Source of the DNA: Escherichia coli
GTDB taxonomy: Bacteria > Pseudomonadota > Gammaproteobacteria > Enterobacterales > Enterobacteriaceae
Length of the DNA: 64,000 nt
Reading direction: 5' to 3' (one strand)
Assembly: GCF_003018115.1 (NCBI RefSeq)
Contig: NZ_CP027457.1
Positions 4,896-31,319 of the stretch are shown in pieces. The notes under the pieces were generated by a model that saw only the letters and a list, made by a program, of their open reading frames with translations, was not told the DNA's origin and searched no databases. How positions within the stretch are numbered: the stretch's first letter is position 1; every line of letters begins with the position of its first letter. A program made the translations under genes and the position numbers.

Positions 4896-5005
4896 TATCA
4901 ATTCCTATTGGTATTACAATGAATGGATAATAGCAATGCGTATTAACCATGGCAATAGCAAAACGTGTTTTGACCATCAATACGCAAGCGTATAAATTAA
5001 AACTT
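4896..5005. promoter_or_regulatory. Immunity-region divergent promoter/operator region (OR-like), with dyad sites ATAATAGCAATGCGTATTAA (about 4927-4946) and GCAATAGCAAAACGTGTTTTG (about 4952-4972)
   Basis: Intergenic between divergent cro-like and cI-like genes; dyad-symmetric repeats sharing AATAGCAA with the OL-like region at 7530-7577. Confidence 0.45.
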
Positions 5006-5698
5006 ATGAAAAAAGAAACTCTTGCTGATCGCTTAAACCTAGCGATGGAACAATCTGGGATGTCTCAAGGCGCTCTTGCAAAGGCGTCTGGCGTAGCTCA
5101 ACCCACAATCTGGAGACTGACAAGCGGCAACGCGCGCGGCTCAACAAAAATTGTTGAAATAGCGAATGCATTGGGTGTTCGAACAGAGTGGCTCTCATCA
5201 GGCATAGGCCCGATGAGAAATGACGGTCAACAATCAGGGAAGCCTACTGTCAACCATTCCAAATACTTCAAGATTGACGTTCTTGATATAGAAGTGAGTG
5301 CCGGGCCGGGAGTCATCAACCGTGAGTTTGTAGAAGTCCTACGCTCGGTTGAGTACTCGTTTGACGATGCTCGTCACATGTTCGATGGCAGGAAGGCGGA
5401 AAATATCCGCATCATTAACGTACGTGGTGACAGCATGTCAGGAACAATCGAACCAGGTGATCTGCTGTTCGTTGATATCACGGTTAAATCTTTCGACGGT
5501 GATGGCATCTATGCGTTTCTGTACGACGACACAGCCCATGTAAAGCGCCTGCAAATGATGAAGGATAAGCTGTTGGTTATCTCTGATAACAAGAGCTACT
5601 CACCGTGGGACCCGATCGAGAAAGACGAGATGAACCGGGTGTTCATTTTTGGGAAAGTCATCGGGAGCATGCCGCAGACCTACAGGAAGCATGGGTAG
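5006..5698 (+). CDS. cI: cI-like prophage repressor (N-terminal XRE-type HTH plus C-terminal S24/LexA-like autoprotease domain)
   Basis: HTH motif GMSQGALAKASGVAQPTIWRL; C-terminal region with GDSM Ser motif (RGDSMSGTIEPGDLLFVD) and downstream Lys (HVKRLQ). Start could also be the upstream ATG at 4949 (track); 5006 leaves room for operators. Confidence 0.8.
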   Translation: MKKETLADRLNLAMEQSGMSQGALAKASGVAQPTIWRLTSGNARGSTKIVEIANALGVRTEWLSSGIGPMRNDGQQSGKPTVNHSKYFKIDVLDIEVSAGPGVINREFVEVLRSVEYSFDDARHMFDGRKAENIRIINVRGDSMSGTIEPGDLLFVDITVKSFDGDGIYAFLYDDTAHVKRLQMMKDKLLVISDNKSYSPWDPIEKDEMNRVFIFGKVIGSMPQTYRKHG

Positions 5699-7649: not shown

Positions 7650-8060
7650 TTGAATTTCAGCAGGCTCCGGGGAGTGCGAGGGGTGAAGCGGACGCGTGAA
7701 CGTCGGTGTGACCAGCTGAAATCAACTCAACACTTCATACCTCAGTCGCTTCAACGAGGCGGCTTAGTTATGACAACCGGCGGCCATCCACCGCCTGAAT
7801 ACGCGCAGAAGTCTCTATATGTTCAGCAGCCCAGCTTACGGGCAGGAGTTTTTATGGTTCATCAACATTACGGAACTCAGACCGTTAATCGCGGTGCCGT
7901 CCGGCCAGGTATGCTGGTTAAACACAAAGATGGTACCTGGACGGCATCAGCTAATTTGCGCGGTCGGCTTTACTTGCATCGCGGCATCGAACGAACGTAC
8001 ACAAAAGATTTGCTCGTGGAGGTTTACCTGAATGGTACTGGCGGTGGTCTGAGCCACTAA
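7650..8060 (+). CDS. Putative N-like antitermination protein (arginine-rich motif near N-terminus); start codon uncertain
   Basis: Track ORF begins at a TTG; translation contains RGVKRTRERR, resembling the lambda N arginine-rich motif (TRRRERR). Alternative starts: GTG near 7683, ATG at 7770, ATG at 7854 (the last with AGGAG 5 nt upstream). Confidence 0.35.
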   Translation: MNFSRLRGVRGVKRTRERRCDQLKSTQHFIPQSLQRGGLVMTTGGHPPPEYAQKSLYVQQPSLRAGVFMVHQHYGTQTVNRGAVRPGMLVKHKDGTWTASANLRGRLYLHRGIERTYTKDLLVEVYLNGTGGGLSH

Positions 8061-8508: not shown

Positions 8509-8805
8509 ATGAACGCTTATTACATTCAGGATCGTCTTGAGGCTCAGAGCTGGGCGCGTCACTACCAGCAGATCGCCCGTGAAGAGAAAGAGGCAGAACT
8601 GGCAGACGACATGGAAAAAGGCCTGCCCCAGCACCTGTTTGAATCACTCTGCATCGATCATTTGCAACGCCACGGGGCCAGCAAAAAAGCCATTACCCGT
8701 GCGTTTGATGACGATGTTGAGTTTCAGGAGCGCATGGCAGAACACATCCGGTACATGGTTGAAACCATTGCTCACCACCAGGTTGATATTGATTCAGAGG
8801 TATAA
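8509..8805 (+). CDS. gam: Gam (RecBCD inhibitor), 98-aa form
   Basis: [60 protein letters not shown]... matches lambda Gam as recalled; AGGAG RBS. Confidence 0.95.
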
Positions 8806-8810
8806 AACGG

Positions 8811-9596
8811 ATGAGTACAGCACTCGCAACGCTGGCTGGGAAGCTGGCTGAACGTGTCGGCATGGATTCTGTCGACCCACAGGAACTGATCACCACTCTT
8901 CGCCAGACAGCATTTAAAGGCGATGCCAGCGATGCGCAGTTCATCGCATTGCTGATCGTCGCCAACCAATACGGCCTTAATCCGTGGACGAAAGAAATTT
9001 ACGCCTTCCCCGATAAGCAGAACGGCATCGTTCCGGTGGTGGGCGTTGATGGCTGGTCCCGCATCATCAACGAAAACCAGCAGTTTGACGGCATGGACTT
9101 TGAACAGGACAACGAATCCTGCACATGCCGGATTTACCGCAAAGACCGCAATCATCCGATCTGCGTTACCGAGTGGATGGATGAATGCCGCCGCGAACCA
9201 TTCAAAACCCGCGAAGGCAGAGAAATCACGGGGCCGTGGCAGTCGCATCCCAAACGGATGTTACGGCATAAAGCCATGATTCAGTGTGCCCGTCTCGCCT
9301 TCGGATTTGCTGGTATCTATGACAAGGATGAAGCCGAGCGCATTGTCGAAAATACCGCATACACTGCAGAACGTCAGCCGGAACGCGACATCACTCCGGT
9401 TAACGATGAAACCATGCAGGAGATTAACACTCTGCTGATTGCCCTGGATAAAACATGGGATGACGACTTATTGCCGCTCTGTTCCCAGATATTTCGCCGC
9501 GACATTCGCGCATCGTCAGAACTGACACAGGCCGAAGCAGTGAAAGCTCTTGGATTCCTGAAACAGAAAGCCACTGAGCAGAAGGTGGCAGCATGA
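8811..9596 (+). CDS. bet: Bet (Red-beta single-strand annealing protein), 261 aa
   Basis: Full-length match to lambda Bet as recalled ([66 protein letters not shown]...). Confidence 0.95.
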
Positions 9597-10273
9597 CACC
9601 GTACATTATCCTGCAGCGTACCGGGATCGACGTGAGAGCTGTCGAACAGGGGGATGATGCATGGCACAAATTACGGCTCGGCGTCATCACCGCTTCAGAA
9701 GTTCACAACGTGATAGCAAAGCCCCGATCAGGAAAGAAGTGGCCTGACATGAAAATGTCCTACTTCCACACCCTGCTGGCTGAGGTTTGCACCGGTGTGG
9801 CTCCGGAAGTTAATGCTAAGGCGCTGGCCTGGGGAAAACAGTACGAGAACGACGCCAGAACCCTGTTTGAATTCACTTCCGGCGTGAATATTACTGAATC
9901 CCCGATCATCTATCGCGACGAAAGTATGCGCACCGCCTGCTCTCCCGATGGTTTATGCAGTGACGGCAACGGCCTTGAACTGAAATGCCCGTTTACCTCC
10001 CGGGATTTCATGAAATTCCGGCTCGGTGGTTTCGAGGCAATAAAATCGGCTTACATGGCCCAGGTGCAGTACAGCATGTGGGTGACGCGAAAAGATGCCT
10101 GGTACTTTGCCAACTATGACCCGCGCATGAAGCGTGAAGGCCTGCATTATGTCGTGATTGAGCGGAATGAAAAGTACATGGCGAGTTTTGACGAGATGGT
10201 GCCGGAGTTCATCGAAAAAATGGACGAGGCACTGGCTGAAATTGGTTTTGTATTTGGGGAGCAATGGCGATGA
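9593..10273 (+). CDS. exo: Lambda exonuclease (Red-alpha), 226 aa
   Basis: [54 protein letters not shown]... matches lambda Exo as recalled; ATGA overlap with the bet stop. Confidence 0.95.
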
Positions 10274-10452
10274 CGCATCCTCACGATAATATCCGGGTAG
10301 GCGCGATCACTTTCGTCTACTCCGTTACAAAGCGAGGCTGGGTATTTCCCGGCCTTTCTGTTATCAGAAATCCACTGAAAGCACAGCGGCTGGCTGAGAA
10401 GATAAATAATAAACGGGAGGCGGTATGCACAAAGCATCTCCTGTTGAGTTAA
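10264..10452 (+). CDS. Small hypothetical phage protein (62 aa), lambda orf60a/orf61/orf63-position
   Basis: ORF overlapping the exo stop; position corresponds to the small orfs between exo and xis in lambda. Confidence 0.45.
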
Positions 10453-10622
10453 GAACGAGTATTGAGATGGCACATAGCCTTGCTCAAATTGGAGTCAGGT
10501 TTGTGCCAATACCAGTAGAAACAGACGAAGAATTTCATACGTTAGCCACATCCCTTTCACAAAAGCTGGAAATGATGGTGGCGAAAGCAGAAGCAGAAGC
10601 AGATGAGAGAGACCAGGTATGA
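10425..10622 (+). CDS. Small hypothetical phage protein (65 aa)
   Basis: ORF with GGGAGG-type RBS; acidic C-terminus; translationally coupled to the next ORF through an ATGA overlap. Confidence 0.5.
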   Translation: MHKASPVELRTSIEMAHSLAQIGVRFVPIPVETDEEFHTLATSLSQKLEMMVAKAEAEADERDQV

Positions 10623-10702
10623 CAACCACTGAATGCATTTTTCTGGCAGCGGGCTTCATATTCTGTGTGCTTATGCTTGCCGACATGGGGCTTGTTCAAT
10701 GA
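10619..10702 (+). CDS. Candidate 27-aa single-TM peptide (MTTTECIFLAAGFIFCVLMLADMGLVQ), below the ORF-track size cutoff
   Basis: ATG overlaps the upstream stop (ATGA) and its own stop overlaps the downstream ATG (ATGA); hydrophobic core consistent with one membrane helix. Confidence 0.35.
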   Translation: MTTTECIFLAAGFIFCVLMLADMGLVQ

Positions 10703-10914
10703 CACCTCAGCAAGAAAACGCCCTTCGCAGCATTGCCCGTCAGGCTAATTCTGAAATCAAAAAAGCCAGACAGCATTTTCCGGATAAAAACGTCGATGAC
10801 ATTTGCCGTAGCGTACTAAAGAAGCACCGCGAAACGGTAACGCTGATGGGATTCACACCGACTCATTTAAGCCTGGCGATCGGCATGTTGAACGGCGTCT
10901 TTAAGGAACGGTGA
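10699..10914 (+). CDS. Small hypothetical phage protein (71 aa from MTPQQ...)
   Basis: Internal ATG of track ORF 10633-10914, chosen because it is translationally coupled to the upstream small ORF. Confidence 0.5.
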   Translation: MTPQQENALRSIARQANSEIKKARQHFPDKNVDDICRSVLKKHRETVTLMGFTPTHLSLAIGMLNGVFKER

Positions 10915-11012
10915 ACATGAAAAGCAAAATCATCAGGGAGCTACAGGCTCCTTTTTTATTATTCGCATTTACCCTCAAGCGTATTAACCAACAATTCAGG
11001 GATTAATGAAAG

Positions 11013-11231
11013 ATGGCAGACATCATTGATTCAGCATCAGAAATCGAAGAATTACAGCGCAATACAGCAATAAAAATGCGTCGTCTGAACTACCAGACTG
11101 TATCCGCAACTCATTGTTGTGAGTGTGGCGATCCGATAGATGAGCGAAGACGCCTGGCTGTTCAGGGTTGTCGGACTTGTGCAAGTTGCCAGGAGGAGAT
11201 CGAACTTAAGAACAAACAATGGGGACTGTGA
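11013..11231 (+). CDS. TraR/DksA-family C4 zinc-finger protein (72 aa)
   Basis: CxxC...17...CxxC motif (CCECGDPIDERRRLAVQGCRTCASC) typical of TraR/DksA C4 zinc fingers; common in lambdoid early-left regions. Confidence 0.7.
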   Translation: MADIIDSASEIEELQRNTAIKMRRLNYQTVSATHCCECGDPIDERRRLAVQGCRTCASCQEEIELKNKQWGL

Positions 11232-11557: not shown

Positions 11558-11900
11558 GGCCTGTCAGTTTCTTAAGATATCCAGACCAACCGCCACCAAC
11601 TGGATACGAACAGGCCGCCTACAGGCAACACGTAAAGATCCAACCAAGCCAAAATCTCCTTACCTCACAACACGGCAAGCCTGCATTGCGGCGCTTCAGT
11701 CTCCGCTGCATACTGTCCAGGTGAGCGCGGGTGATGGCATAACAGAGGAAAGAAAATGTCACTCTTCCGCAGAAATGAAATATGGTATGCCTCGTATTCG
11801 CTCCCGGGCGGGAAACGAATTAAGGAATCTCTTGGCACAAAGGACAAGCGGCAAGCTCAGGAGTTGCACGACAAGCGAAAAGCAGAACTCTGGCGAGTAG
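11529..11900 (+). CDS. xis: Excisionase-like (AlpA/Xis-type HTH) ORF; reading frame runs about 145 nt into int, so the true 3' end is uncertain
   Basis: [36 protein letters not shown] is an AlpA-like HTH; immediately upstream of the integrase. Confidence 0.45.
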
Positions 11901-12919
11901 AAAAGCTAGGGGATTTACCTGATGTCACTTTTGAAGAGGCCTGCCTAAGATGGCTTGAGGAAAAAGCTGATAAAAAATCTCTCGATTCAGATAAAAGCCG
12001 GATTGAGTTCTGGCTTGAACATTTTGAGGGTATAAGGCTTAAAGATATCTCGGAGGCAAAGATTTACTCTGCTGTAAGCAGAATGCATAACAGAAAGACG
12101 AAAGAAATATGGAAACAGAAAGTTCAGGCCGCCATCAGGAAAGGTAAAGAACCGCCTGTTTATGAACCAAAGCCAGTATCAACTCAGACAAAGGCAAAGC
12201 ATCTTGCCATGATAAAGGCCATTCTCCGTGCTGCAGAACGCGACTGGAAGTGGCTGGAAAAAGCGCCTGTCATCAAGATACCAGCGGTCAGAAACAAGCG
12301 AGTCAGATGGCTGGAAAAGGAGGAAGCAAAACGCCTTATTGATGAGTGCCCCGAACCACTGAAATCTGTCGTCAAGTTTGCGCTGGCAACTGGTCTGAGA
12401 AAGTCGAACATCATAAATCTGGAATGGCAACAAATCGACATGCAGCGACGAGTTGCCTGGGTGAATCCAGAAGAGAGCAAATCAAACCGCGCCATTGGCG
12501 TGGCGCTGAACGATACCGCCTGTAAAGTGTTGCGTGATCAAATAGGCAAGCATCACAAATGGGTGTTTGTACATACCAAGGCGGCTAAGCGAGCAGATGG
12601 AACATCAACGCCTGCGGTCAGGAAGATGCGCATCGACAGCAAGACATCATGGCTATCAGCTTGTCGTCGTGCAGGAATTGAAGATTTCCGTTTCCATGAC
12701 CTCAGACACACCTGGGCAAGCTGGCTGATTCAGTCAGGCGTCCCATTATCAGTGCTTCAGGAAATGGGCGGATGGGAGTCCATAGAAATGGTTCGTAGGT
12801 ATGCTCACCTTGCGCCTAATCATTTGACAGAGCATGCGAGGAAAATAGACGACATTTTTGGTGATAATGTCCCAAATATGTCCCACTCTGGAATTATGGA
12901 GGATATAAAGAAGGCGTAA
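11756..12919 (+). CDS. intD: Tyrosine integrase, DLP12 IntD-type (387 aa)
   Basis: Full-length match to DLP12 IntD as recalled ([46 protein letters not shown]...; C-terminal [10 protein letters not shown]...RYAHL catalytic region); stop 16 nt from the tRNA 3' end. Confidence 0.95.
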
Positions 12920-12934
12920 CTGATTGAATTGTAA

Positions 12935-13011
12935 TGGCGCGCCCTGCAGGATTCGAACCTGCGGCCCACGACTTAGAAGGTCGTTGCTCTATCCAACTGA
13001 GCTAAGGGCGC
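12935..13011 (-). tRNA. argU: tRNA-Arg (anticodon UCU)
   Basis: Reverse complement reads GCGCCCTTAGCTCAGTTGGATAGAGCAACGACCTTCTAAGTCGTGGGCCGCAGGTTCGAATCCTGCAGGGCGCGCCA; cloverleaf with TCT anticodon and encoded CCA. Confidence 0.95.
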
Positions 13012-13253
13012 GTTGATACCGCAATGCGGTGTAATCGCGTGAATTATACGGTCAACCCTTGCTGAGTCAATGGCTTTTGATCTGGTTGCTGAACAAGTGA
13101 ACGACCGCGTCTGATTTTCTGATTTATTTCGCTATAGCGGCAAACAAACGCACACCGCTGCGCGTCTGAATCAAGAAAACCCGTATTTTCATGTATCAAA
13201 GTACAATTTACCGCCCTAACGGAAAATTGTCCGCTCCTATGAGACTGGTAACT

Positions 13254-13886
13254 ATGAAACCAACGTCGGTGATCATTATGGATACTCATCCTATCATCAG
13301 AATGTCTATTGAAGTTCTGTTGCAAAAAAACAGTGAATTGCAGATTGTCCTGAAAACGGATGATTACCGCATAACCATCGATTATCTCCGAACCCGTCCT
13401 GTTGATTTAATCATTATGGATATAGACTTGCCCGGAACAGACGGTTTTACCTTCCTGAAAAGGATCAAACAAATCCAGAGCACAGTGAAAGTGTTATTTT
13501 TATCATCGAAATCAGAATGCTTTTATGCTGGCAGAGCGATACAAGCTGGTGCTAACGGTTTTGTCAGTAAATGCAATGATCAGAATGATATTTTTCATGC
13601 CGTTCAGATGATCCTCTCCGGATACACGTTTTTTCCCAGCGAAACGCTTAACTATATAAAAAGCAATAAATGTAGTACGAATAGTTCAACGGTCACTGTG
13701 CTATCTAATCGTGAAGTGACCATATTACGTTATCTAGTTAGCGGATTATCTAATAAAGAAATTGCCGATAAGTTATTACTTAGCAATAAAACAGTTAGTG
13801 CGCATAAATCTAATATTTATGGCAAGCTAGGTTTGCATTCAATTGTAGAGCTTATCGACTACGCCAAATTATACGAATTAATATAA
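13254..13886 (+). CDS. fimZ: Fimbrial response regulator FimZ (REC plus LuxR-type HTH)
   Basis: Translation from MKPTSVIIMDTHPIIRMSIEVLLQKN... matches FimZ as recalled; track ORF extends upstream to 13191. Confidence 0.9.
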   Translation: MKPTSVIIMDTHPIIRMSIEVLLQKNSELQIVLKTDDYRITIDYLRTRPVDLIIMDIDLPGTDGFTFLKRIKQIQSTVKVLFLSSKSECFYAGRAIQAGANGFVSKCNDQNDIFHAVQMILSGYTFFPSETLNYIKSNKCSTNSSTVTVLSNREVTILRYLVSGLSNKEIADKLLLSNKTVSAHKSNIYGKLGLHSIVELIDYAKLYELI

Positions 13887-29335: not shown

Positions 29336-31003
29336 TTATTGCAAACGTTCTAATAAACGAGCCAGTTTTTTATTGCCGCCGGCGACTGGCGACCATTGGT
29401 AATGCACAACCGGTTTGCTGGCGCTTTGTAGCTCCAGCGCAAAACTGCGTAATCCGATGTTAATCACGGCGACGTTTTCCAGTAATGACGGTGTGTGTTG
29501 CTGTGCGGCAGGCGAGAGCGGATGAATTAACGCTGCCGCCAGCAAGGTGGCTTCCGGTAGCGAACTCACGACCGCAATCCCCGCATCTTCCAGCGTGGCG
29601 ATTTGCTGCGAGCGGCATTGCGGGTCACGTTCGGTACCTGTCACCGTGGCAATGGCGTACAGCGGTTGGCTGTCTGAACGCGCGGCACAGGCTTTTTGCC
29701 AGGCGCTCACCAGCGAGGCGGCAGGATCGGCGGTCGCGCCGAAGCCAATCACGACATCAAGTAGCAATACGCGCACTGACGGTTTAGCGCCGAGATCGGC
29801 AATTAACTGGTTGCGTAAGGTTGGGTCGATCATCGGATGGGGACGCCCGACGGTGTAGAAATCATCGCCGAGGTCAATAATCTGGTGACCATCGGCGTCG
29901 AGCATCATGCCGTGATGATGGGCATCATCGGCTTCCACGCCAAGGTGTCCGGCAAGTAATCCCGCCGCTTCGGCAGCCAGCGTACCGCCGGTATACAAAC
30001 CGCAAATAAATCCGCTGCTGGCAGGCGTTATCGCGTTACGTCGCGCCGTAACGCGTGAAAGCAGGCAAGCCAGGCGTGCGGCCTCATCCAGCGAGGAGGC
30101 AAACCAGACATTCTCGTCGCGGGCCACCGCCGGGGTATAACCTAAAAACAGCGCCACCGTCGGTTTGCCGGTTGCTTTCATGGCATTAACAATTTTCAGA
30201 CGCACCGCTTCGGCAGGTGGTTTTGAAACAAATGCCAGCACTTCGCTTTTCTCGTCTGCACTGAGCATTTCCAGCGCCGTCAGCGCACTGATGCCGCCCA
30301 CTTCACGGCTGAGGTCGCGGCCGCCAAGGCCAATCGCGTGAGTAATTCCCTCCCCTGCCAGCGCAATCTGCGAGCACAGCTCCTGAATCCCGGTACCGGA
30401 AGCGCCAATGACACCAATGTTGCCTTCCGGCATCACGTTAGCAAAAGCCAGCGGCGTGCCGGCAATCATCGACGTACCGCAGTCCGGCCCCATCACCAGC
30501 AAGCCTTTTTCCCGCGCGCGGGTTTTAAGTTGGATTTCATCTTCCAGCGTGACGTTATCGGAGAACATCATCACGTTGAGGTTGCGATCCAGCGCCTGAT
30601 TCGCCAGCTCCGCCGCATACTCGCCAGCCACTGAAATCAGCGCCAGATTGGCATCGGGTAATTTCTGACAGGCACTGTCCCAGCGACGCACCTGCGTCAA
30701 CGCCTGGCTGCTGCCTGACCCCTGCGCCAGTTGTTTTAGCGCCTCTTCAAGCTGCTGCATAATCGCCTGCGCGATCCCCGCATCCGCCGCTTCGCTACGA
30801 ATTGCCACGCAAATATCGTTCGGCGTGGCGTTATTAAAATCGTCATGCCAGAAACCTGTGGTATCTAATAACGCTTTATTGGCGGGCGTACCCATCATTA
30901 CGGAAACATCATCAACATTTTCTGATTCGCTGAGTTTTCGTGAAATAATCATTAAACTGACCGAATCCTGAAAACACCCTTTTTTAATAAAGGCGTGGAT
31001 CAT
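29336..31003 (-). CDS. fdrA: FdrA (succinyl-CoA synthetase alpha-like CoA-binding protein)
   Basis: 555-aa protein with CoA-binding/ligase-like domains. Confidence 0.9.
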   Translation of the reverse strand: MIHAFIKKGCFQDSVSLMIISRKLSESENVDDVSVMMGTPANKALLDTTGFWHDDFNNATPNDICVAIRSEAADAGIAQAIMQQLEEALKQLAQGSGSSQALTQVRRWDSACQKLPDANLALISVAGEYAAELANQALDRNLNVMMFSDNVTLEDEIQLKTRAREKGLLVMGPDCGTSMIAGTPLAFANVMPEGNIGVIGASGTGIQELCSQIALAGEGITHAIGLGGRDLSREVGGISALTALEMLSADEKSEVLAFVSKPPAEAVRLKIVNAMKATGKPTVALFLGYTPAVARDENVWFASSLDEAARLACLLSRVTARRNAITPASSGFICGLYTGGTLAAEAAGLLAGHLGVEADDAHHHGMMLDADGHQIIDLGDDFYTVGRPHPMIDPTLRNQLIADLGAKPSVRVLLLDVVIGFGATADPAASLVSAWQKACAARSDSQPLYAIATVTGTERDPQCRSQQIATLEDAGIAVVSSLPEATLLAAALIHPLSPAAQQHTPSLLENVAVINIGLRSFALELQSASKPVVHYQWSPVAGGNKKLARLLERLQ

Positions 31004-31319
31004 AACAACTCCTTAAAAATTGCACCCATGGCAATTGCACGAGCAGTGTTAATGTGGCGATTACGGTATCGATGACAACGAGTAAATAAGGTGATGAATA
31101 TCACACAGGGATTATTAACAAAAGAATTCAAATAACCGCCAGACTATTACGAGTTATTTTTTAATAAGCATGGTTGTTTTAAAAACCAGGTTAAAAGCGC
31201 GAAGATTATCAAATAAATTCTAACTATATTTTTTTGCCTGTCTGGATCACATAATCCAGATATTTTCCCTGTATGTTAATTGCAGTCATGCTTCACACCG
31301 TCGTTAAAAAGGAAGACAG

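Follow-up and report, generated by a model that had tools for sequence, protein, structure and literature searches.

A probable 27-codon gene for a small hydrophobic peptide between orf63 and orf61 of lambdoid prophages

The window analyzed here is a 64,000-nucleotide (nt) stretch of the Escherichia coli contig NZ_CP027457.1 (assembly GCF_003018115.1), the left 13 kb of which is a lambdoid prophage. Between orf63 and orf61 of this prophage lies a 27-codon open reading frame (ORF), here termed orf27 (10619..10702, plus strand, 84 nt), that encodes the peptide MTTTECIFLAAGFIFCVLMLADMGLVQ. The most likely interpretation of the sequence data is that orf27 is a genuine gene, coding for protein, in the early leftward (pL) operon of lambdoid phages. 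A first-pass annotation of the window had pointed to a 27-codon frame at 10619–10702, between ORFs of 65 and 71 amino acids (aa), and an ATG-initiated ORF of 27 aa is listed there. Phage lambda (J02459) encodes the identical peptide (31008..30925, complement; 100% identical orf27). In this lambda-like prophage, the orf27 region belongs to the exo-xis part of the pL operon. Lambda is the reference temperate phage, and its exo-xis region is among its last poorly understood parts. The region influences lysogenization and prophage induction, including in Shiga-toxin (Stx) phages (Wegrzyn and Donaldson papers: PMC10869804, PMC8614690, PMC4195576).

Conservation and substitution pattern of orf27

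We collected 262 orf27 copies from phage records, IMG/VR, metagenomes and genomes, and distinct haplotypes were used for inference because some contigs had entered twice. The identical peptide was encoded by 216 of the 262 copies. Conservation of the frame across related prophages had been set beforehand as the refuting test, and orf27 was found intact in 149 of 152 distinct 530-nt haplotypes, with orf61 intact in 144 of the 152. The three non-intact haplotypes carried an ATG to ATA change, a 1-nt deletion (metagenome contig, 1.3x coverage) and a 14-nt deletion (Escherichia sp. E1V33); only two indel events were observed in the 84 nt across the 152 haplotypes.

The comparison of synonymous with non-synonymous changes, also proposed in the first-pass annotation, came out in favor of a coding frame. 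In the orf27 frame 15 of 30 variant alleles were synonymous vs. 8.3 expected (permutation p = 0.008, each mutation being re-placed on a same-base site), and 6 and 8 changes were synonymous in the other two sense frames (p = 0.9 and 0.5, respectively). Among the common variants (present in at least 6 copies), 10 of 12 were synonymous (about 1e-4 by our own binomial calculation). The ratio of non-synonymous to synonymous differences (pN/pS, Nei-Gojobori over distinct haplotypes) was 0.12–0.16 for orf27 (pS 0.12–0.15), and 0.85–2.1 for the same DNA read in the other two sense frames. Among the sense frames, a ratio well below 1, as left by purifying selection, was observed only in orf27's own frame. 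The neighbors gave values of 0.11 (orf61), 0.15 (orf73), 0.20 (orf63), 0.33 (a 31-aa ORF downstream of orf61) and 0.34 (orf60a). Hence, orf27 is as constrained as accepted neighbor genes, and the product of one of these has a nuclear magnetic resonance structure (PMC10869804).

An antisense ORF of 63 aa (10495–10686, minus strand) was considered as the coding frame and rejected. Its pN/pS was 0.35 where it overlaps orf27 and 0.76 where it overlaps orf63, its start was lost in 4 copies, and it opposes the operon. The low pN/pS of the antisense frame that shares wobble positions with orf27 is treated here as a by-product.

Stop/start overlaps and start signals

The orf63 gene ends with GTA TGA (10620–10622) and the ATG of orf27 occupies 10619–10621; similarly, orf27 ends with CAA TGA (10700–10702) and the ATG of orf61 occupies 10699–10701. 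The ATGA tetranucleotides described earlier at 10619–10622 and 10699–10702 are exact in the sequence. At the orf27/orf61 junction about a quarter of the copies have GTGA, and all copies have either ATGA or GTGA. An overlap with both neighbors that is conserved across relatives, as looked for in translationally coupled genes, is thus observed. The chain of coupled small ORFs downstream of exo, proposed in the first-pass annotation, is borne out and extends beyond what had been reported, with ATGA at bet/exo (9593–9596) and exo/orf60a (10270–10273) and GTGA at orf61/31-aa ORF (10911–10914; ATGA in lambda). From bet through the 31-aa ORF, 4-nt stop/start overlaps are present at 5 of 7 junctions. 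By our own arithmetic, the chance that a frame exactly bridges the orf63 stop to the orf61 start is under about 1% (phase, 1/3; 25 stop-free codons, 0.31–0.38; one fixed A per junction, ∼1/4 each).

A purine-rich Shine-Dalgarno (SD)-like stretch, GAGAGAGACCAGGT (10605..10618, plus strand), precedes the orf27 start. Its strength is moderate: the duplex with the anti-SD is worth −5.6 kcal/mol, which beats ∼80–90% of positions (18% reach −5 and 11% reach −6). The SD of the 71-aa orf61 start is weak (−4.7 kcal/mol), and that of an ATG at 10633 is weaker and badly spaced (−3.8 kcal/mol). The overlaps are of the same kind as those of ATGA termination-reinitiation coupling (Huber et al., 2019, cited in PMC11188072), and such coupling is proposed here.

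The start ATGA of orf27 is retained behind five different upstream sequences, with junctions to a lambda-type orf63 (CAGGTATGA), a 933W-type orf63 (CCGGCATGA), a 2G7a-type orf63 (CTTGCATGA), a Dam-like methyltransferase (GCTGCATGA) and a DGQHR-domain protein (GCGGCATGA). The methyltransferase takes the place of orf63 in PhiR30_1 and E. coli B REL606, where homology to the window starts exactly at the orf27 ATG. In the methyltransferase context a strong GGGAGG SD (−10.3 kcal/mol) is present before orf27.

Unrelated upstream genes (several methyltransferases and the DGQHR protein) end in ..EAA*, with the DNA sequence GGAGGCNGCATGA, which gives an SD and an ATGA to the orf27 or orf61 that follows. 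This end looks like a shared junction where modules are exchanged.

Properties of the peptide

The hydrophobic core of the peptide, CIFLAAGFIFCVLMLA, comprises codons 6–21 (C6–A21; 10634..10681, plus strand) and is flanked by E5 and D22. Its best 16-residue Kyte-Doolittle mean is 2.81 (C6–A21), the highest of 496 small ORFs (20–40 aa) in the window and within the top 0.3% of stop-free 27-codon windows; the single hydrophobic helix predicted earlier holds on this measure. A simple Hessa-scale sum gives −3.4 over the 16 residues, and windows of 19–21 residues take in D22. The segment G12–L20 (GFIFCVLML) is invariant among the observed peptide variants.

No match to the peptide was found in Pfam; the best NCBIfam hit was MtrF (13.8 bits vs. 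a cut-off of 25), the best PHROGs hit had E = 0.68, and the Kil and KilR models gave no match. These data suggest that orf27 encodes a new, family-less small hydrophobic peptide of a translationally coupled phage early-operon gene, with a predicted membrane location. Between 10560 and 10760 no promoter-like site was detected on either strand. A structured RNA or Rfam element at orf27 was considered and rejected (fold z-scores of +0.8 and +1.0, and no Rfam match).

Annotation and distribution

The first-pass annotation had called the frame unlisted. This stands for every phage record and RefSeq genome inspected; the exact peptide has, however, been deposited as a ‘hypothetical protein’ in some whole-genome shotgun records, on 981 contigs. 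The phage records inspected were those of lambda, 434, 933W, 2G7a, PhiR30_1, HUN/2013, mEp332 and PhiR47_2, and in the inspected PGAP/RefSeq E. coli chromosomes a 76-nt gap is left between orf63 and the 71-aa orf61. Literature text searches returned no published mention of the peptide. Its string was absent from the supplements of the Sakai RIBOseq study, in which only ORFs of at least 30 aa were considered, and from the supplement text of the Enterobacteriaceae microproteome study. The 90%-identity protein cluster of the 27-aa peptide also contains two unrelated 428-aa glycosyltransferase-like proteins, an artefact of short-sequence clustering.

Of 5426 complete E. coli genomes, 3212 were matched by a 201-nt query around orf27 (at least 2898 at ≥80% coverage), as were ∼178 phage records, all of E. 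coli lambdoid or Stx phages. Over half of all complete E. coli genomes carry the peptide. A genome-contig scan gave only 3 loci, and when divergent orf27 alleles were sought in viral sequences, two scans gave 1 and 0 loci.

Positional analogues in Yersinia-type prophages

Yersinia phage vB_YenM_29.18 has a 31-aa ORF, MKRKISDGAWFWIYLIGYTVAATLYIVSNAG, whose start overlaps the stop of a methyltransferase gene as ATGA and whose end lies 3 nt before an orf61 homologue. A single-helix ORF of 29–36 aa was found directly upstream of the orf61 homologue in ∼23 of 35 IMG/VR loci of this Yersinia-type orf61 lineage. These small ORFs fall into three families, Y1 (MKRKISDGAWFWIYLIGYTVAATLYIVSNAG and variants), Y2 (...YLDWILLIVGGGVAFWLLWVKEW) and Y3 (MNQPKVTEILIGICFALFIICLVVYVVGDAMNGVSM), unrelated to each other and to orf27. 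The pN/pS was 0.25 (at pS 0.52) for Y2 and weaker, 0.45, for Y1. Over Y2, the other frames gave 0.9–1.8 in 4 of 5 cases and 0.37 in the wobble-sharing antisense frame, and the adjacent orf61 homologue gave 0.28. Two NCBI assemblies have the order MT-A70 methyltransferase, 36-aa ORF, 32-aa Y2 ORF, orf61 homologue, DUF1233 gene and integrase, and gene callers call both tandem small ORFs there. In the Yersinia phage records the Y1–Y3 ORFs are unannotated, and no PHROG family matched them.

The Y1–Y3 ORFs share with orf27 the slot upstream of an orf61 homologue, a single hydrophobic helix, junctions with overlaps or 3-nt gaps and a mostly unannotated state. They differ in that the sequences are unrelated, the Yersinia-type flanks are charged (MKRK.., ..VKEW) and two ORFs are sometimes present in tandem. 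In Klebsiella-type loci the orf61 homologue is coupled directly to a large upstream gene in 72 of 72 cases, with no small ORF; hence, the small-ORF slot is recurrent but not universal. Unrelated peptides in one slot would be expected of host-interface accessory genes. The parallel ORFs suggest a wider class that is systematically missed by standard gene callers and length cut-offs.

The start of orf61

The lambda record annotates orf61 at 30839..31024 (J02459), and a 93-aa Orf61 is annotated in 933W and Phi24B. Both annotations use the same DNA and overlap orf27 completely, or almost so, in a different frame. The lambda gene is frameshifted by an extra A in an AAAAAA run and is truncated relative to the 71-aa form; the extra A has already been noted (PMC8614690). 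The out-of-frame N-terminal extension, MHFSGSGLHILCAYACRHGACS (10633..10698, plus strand), which is part of the 93-aa annotation and lies within the annotated orf61 of lambda, is probably not coding. In its frame, pN/pS was 1.4–2.1. SfI-type prophages are without orf27, and their orf61 starts MTIEHNNALRS with its own GAGG SD. The orf61 homologues of Klebsiella, Yersinia, Enterobacter, Vibrio and Erwinia (29–47% identity) align with the 71-aa form from its first residue, with the N-terminus MTP..ENAL conserved across the five genera. The 22 N-terminal residues of the 93-aa Orf61 (phrog_303 profile) are neither conserved as protein nor present in homologues. Taken together, the homologue starts and the pN/pS of the extension argue that the 71-aa form is probably the real Orf61 protein, and that the lambda start at 31024 and the 93-aa start are both too far upstream.

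A reading in which the 27-codon frame is spurious and the true gene is the long Orf61 of 93 aa that begins at ATG 10633 (so annotated in 933W and Phi24B, and extended in lambda) is, in our view, very improbable. In its favor, the frame that begins at 10633 is uninterrupted in every copy, many records annotate it, and Escherichia sp. E1V33 has an ATGA-coupled 93-aa ORF in the orf61 frame. The latter, however, is accounted for by the 14-nt deletion within orf27, which shifts the orf27 ATG into the orf61 frame; E1V33 is a natural orf27 knockout and not support for a long Orf61. The absence of constraint over the extension, the start of the SfI type and of all distant homologues at the 71-aa position, the selection of that start by PGAP and the weak, badly spaced SD all speak against the long form, and in published models its residues 1–23 are inconsistent between predictors (PMC8614690).

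In RefSeq, orf61 often bears the name ‘cell division protein ZapA’. The Pfam ZapA match is sub-threshold (14.7 bits vs. 23.8, E = 0.038) and no ZapA match was found in NCBIfam; the label looks unreliable. The distant orf61 homologues are nearly always directly downstream of a DNA methyltransferase gene, with a 4-nt overlap, which hints that Orf61-family proteins may be functionally linked to phage methyltransferases.

Alternative explanations and proposed model

Several observations weigh against orf27 being a gene for a membrane peptide. SfI-type and Klebsiella-type modules lack orf27, which is dispensable; its start is lost (ATA) in 2 copies, and its frame is broken by the deletion in E1V33. 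The peptide has no Lys or Arg, so the basic flank expected from the positive-inside rule, although not obligatory for the class, is missing, and a core of 16 residues is short for a membrane span. A tblastn search with the peptide found 175 phage records at ≥92.6% identity and none more distant. The selection test rests on ∼30 variants because the peptide is confined to E. coli lambdoid phages at this level of identity. The antisense frame sharing wobble positions is also low (pN/pS 0.19 over the 84 nt), so pN/pS alone cannot fix the strand. Finally, a review of lambda ribosome profiling lists only a 7-aa and a 31-aa peptide as new in the region (PMC8614690); footprints over orf27, however, would have been assigned to orf61, whose annotation overlaps it.

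One alternative is that orf27 is a non-coding spacer, open by chance, with a substitution pattern that stems from the antisense 63-aa ORF or from sampling noise. The small number of variant alleles and the low value of the wobble-sharing antisense frame would fit. The antisense ORF itself, however, is inconsistently constrained, least of all over orf63, loses its start in some copies and runs against the operon with no minus-strand promoter-like site nearby, and neither the scarcity of indels nor the conservation of ATGA in five upstream contexts would be expected of a spacer; we regard a spacer as very unlikely, if slightly less so than the 93-aa gene. Somewhat less unlikely, but still improbable, is a relay ORF, whose translation serves solely to bring ribosomes from orf63 to the orf61 start and whose peptide has no function. 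The weak orf61 SD, its overlap with the orf27 stop as ATGA/GTGA and the direct coupling of the Klebsiella-type orf61 to its upstream gene, which makes coupling the constant feature, are consistent with a relay. Mere openness, however, would not give the low pN/pS, the invariant GFIFCVLML and the extreme hydrophobicity, and lambda has a frameshifted orf61 yet retains orf27 perfectly, which argues that orf27 is independent of orf61.

A real but non-membrane peptide, in which the hydrophobic helix is bound to a soluble partner such as Orf61 or Orf63, is only marginally better placed than the relay and likewise improbable. The lack of basic residues and the short core leave room for such a model, as do the acidic residues on both flanks, the tight linkage of orf27 to orf61, with which it was co-transferred in two upstream contexts, and the unrelated small hydrophobic ORFs adjoining orf61 homologues in Yersinia-type prophages. 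In contrast, the core matches a typical membrane helix in hydrophobicity (by the Hessa sum), SfI-type and Klebsiella-type orf61 do without orf27, and the Yersinia-type analogues have typical membrane-helix flanks.

The explanation that we favor, and consider reasonably probable as a whole, is that orf27 is coding, is translated by reinitiation at ATGA, yields a membrane-embedded peptide with a protein partner, and feeds ribosomes to orf61. Ribosomes that end translation of orf63 (or of the Dam-like methyltransferase in other mosaics) would restart at the ATGA, aided by the purine-rich SD. The 27-residue peptide would then enter the inner membrane via the 16-residue helix C6–A21 with its invariant GFIFCVLML, and it may act by helix-helix contact with a larger host or phage membrane protein, as bacterial small membrane proteins do. 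Termination of orf27 at ATGA/GTGA would hand ribosomes to the weak-SD start of orf61. Inhibition of division, a possible host-targeting role raised in the first-pass annotation, is not needed as the role of orf27, because a separate Kil gene is present (7854–8060). A more far-reaching proposal, to which we give a rather low probability, is that orf27 and Y1–Y3 define a fast-turnover slot of tiny membrane effectors upstream of orf61-family genes, and that the pro-lytic and lysogenization phenotypes attributed to lambda ‘orf61’ stem from loss of the 27-residue peptide, which would act on a target in the host inner membrane.

Prophage setting and operon order

The prophage is integrated at argU, with tRNA-Arg(TCT) at 12935–13011 (minus strand) and fimZ beyond it (argU end of the prophage, region 12935–13886). 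This integration site is the attachment site of DLP12 in E. coli K-12. In DLP12 the entire exo-xis block is gone, and E. coli B REL606 retains a remnant with a partial methyltransferase, orf27, orf61, TraR, DUF4222 and then intD. An Rfam ‘Plastid-ycf2 5UTR’ match at 12937–13011 (plus strand), opposite the tRNA, is surely spurious (34.7 bits vs. a gathering score of 65.7).

The ren, P and O genes, a cII-like gene and a cro-like gene lie on the minus strand of the prophage. On the plus strand, a CI-like repressor gene (4949–5698) is followed by two unknown genes, and the gene for a Kil/KilR-type FtsZ (septation) inhibitor (7854–8060; phrog_294, E = 1.6e-35; NCBIfam PRK11354) lies upstream of gam (8509–8805), whose ORF here is the short 98-aa form only. 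Next on the same strand are bet (8811–9596), exo (9593..10273, lambda exonuclease, annotated as exonuclease in homologous records) and orf60a (10270..10452, DUF1317), for which PGAP picks the 60-aa start and an alternative ATG exists at 10264. The orf63 gene (10425..10622, plus strand, DUF1382) carries an in-frame duplication of 6 nt (GCAGAA; 10587–10601), also present in strain JCC-EE 7, that lengthens its product from 63 to 65 aa. Downstream of orf27, the 71-aa form of orf61 (10699..10914, plus strand) overlaps the 31-aa ORF MNMKSKIIRELQAPFLLFAFTLKRINQQFRD (10911..11006, plus strand), which encloses an intrinsic-terminator-like hairpin (10935–10953; 10935..10963 with its T-run; plus strand) downstream of the coupled chain. 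A 31-aa peptide of the region (orf2313) has been reported to be translated in lambda (PMC8614690), and the ORF at 10911–11006 is probably orf2313, matched on length. A predicted terminator between orf61 and orf73 has been described (PMC4195576). Then follow orf73/TraR (11013–11231, plus strand), a DUF4222 gene, xis and int (11756–12919, plus strand).

Consequences for orf61 genetics and comparison with known systems

In the delta-orf61 mutants of lambda and Phi24B, the orf61 nucleotide sequence was replaced by a cassette scar (PMC6213356). Judged by their coordinates, these deletions would take out orf27 entirely in lambda and leave only its first five codons in Phi24B; the delta-orf61 phenotypes are therefore confounded if orf27 is a gene. 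Ribosome-profiling support has been cited for orf61 (PMC8614690), and it could equally stem from orf27 because the annotated orf61 covers it. Several small ORFs of the region have been implicated in blocking the initiation of host replication (‘bin’) (PMC9239242, TraR-family work). We propose orf27 as an unconsidered candidate for the delta-orf61, orf61-profiling and ‘bin’ observations. If orf27 is a gene, (i) the orf61 annotations of lambda, 933W and Phi24B have a wrong start and hide a gene; and (ii) a functionally unassigned peptide is encoded in at least 2898 of 5426 complete E. coli genomes. The main interest of the finding is that even the lambda record lacks orf27 and that existing orf61 genetics are confounded by it.

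Among known small peptides, the type I toxins TisB, DinQ, Ibs, Ldr and Hok are hydrophobic peptides of 19–50 aa with their own promoter and an antisense RNA. The orf27 product is a hydrophobic peptide in that size range; unlike the toxins, orf27 is an internal, coupled operon gene, and neither an antisense promoter (10560–10760) nor a structured RNA signal was found. Kil, an inhibitor of FtsZ, and CIII, an inhibitor of FtsH, are encoded in the lambda pL operon and are, to our knowledge, not transmembrane. They share with orf27 the operon, the early timing, the small size and dispensability in the laboratory, whereas orf27 matches no Kil model and the prophage has its own Kil gene. KdpF (29 aa), AcrZ, MgtS and CydX are bacterial inner-membrane proteins of at most 50 aa that bind larger membrane proteins, and KdpF, as far as we know, has no Lys or Arg. 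The orf27 peptide has no sequence relationship to these proteins and differs in being phage-borne and early-expressed, in its 16-residue core and in a membrane location that is only predicted; it resembles them in size, in a single hydrophobic helix, in having no enzymatic domain and in its position inside an operon.

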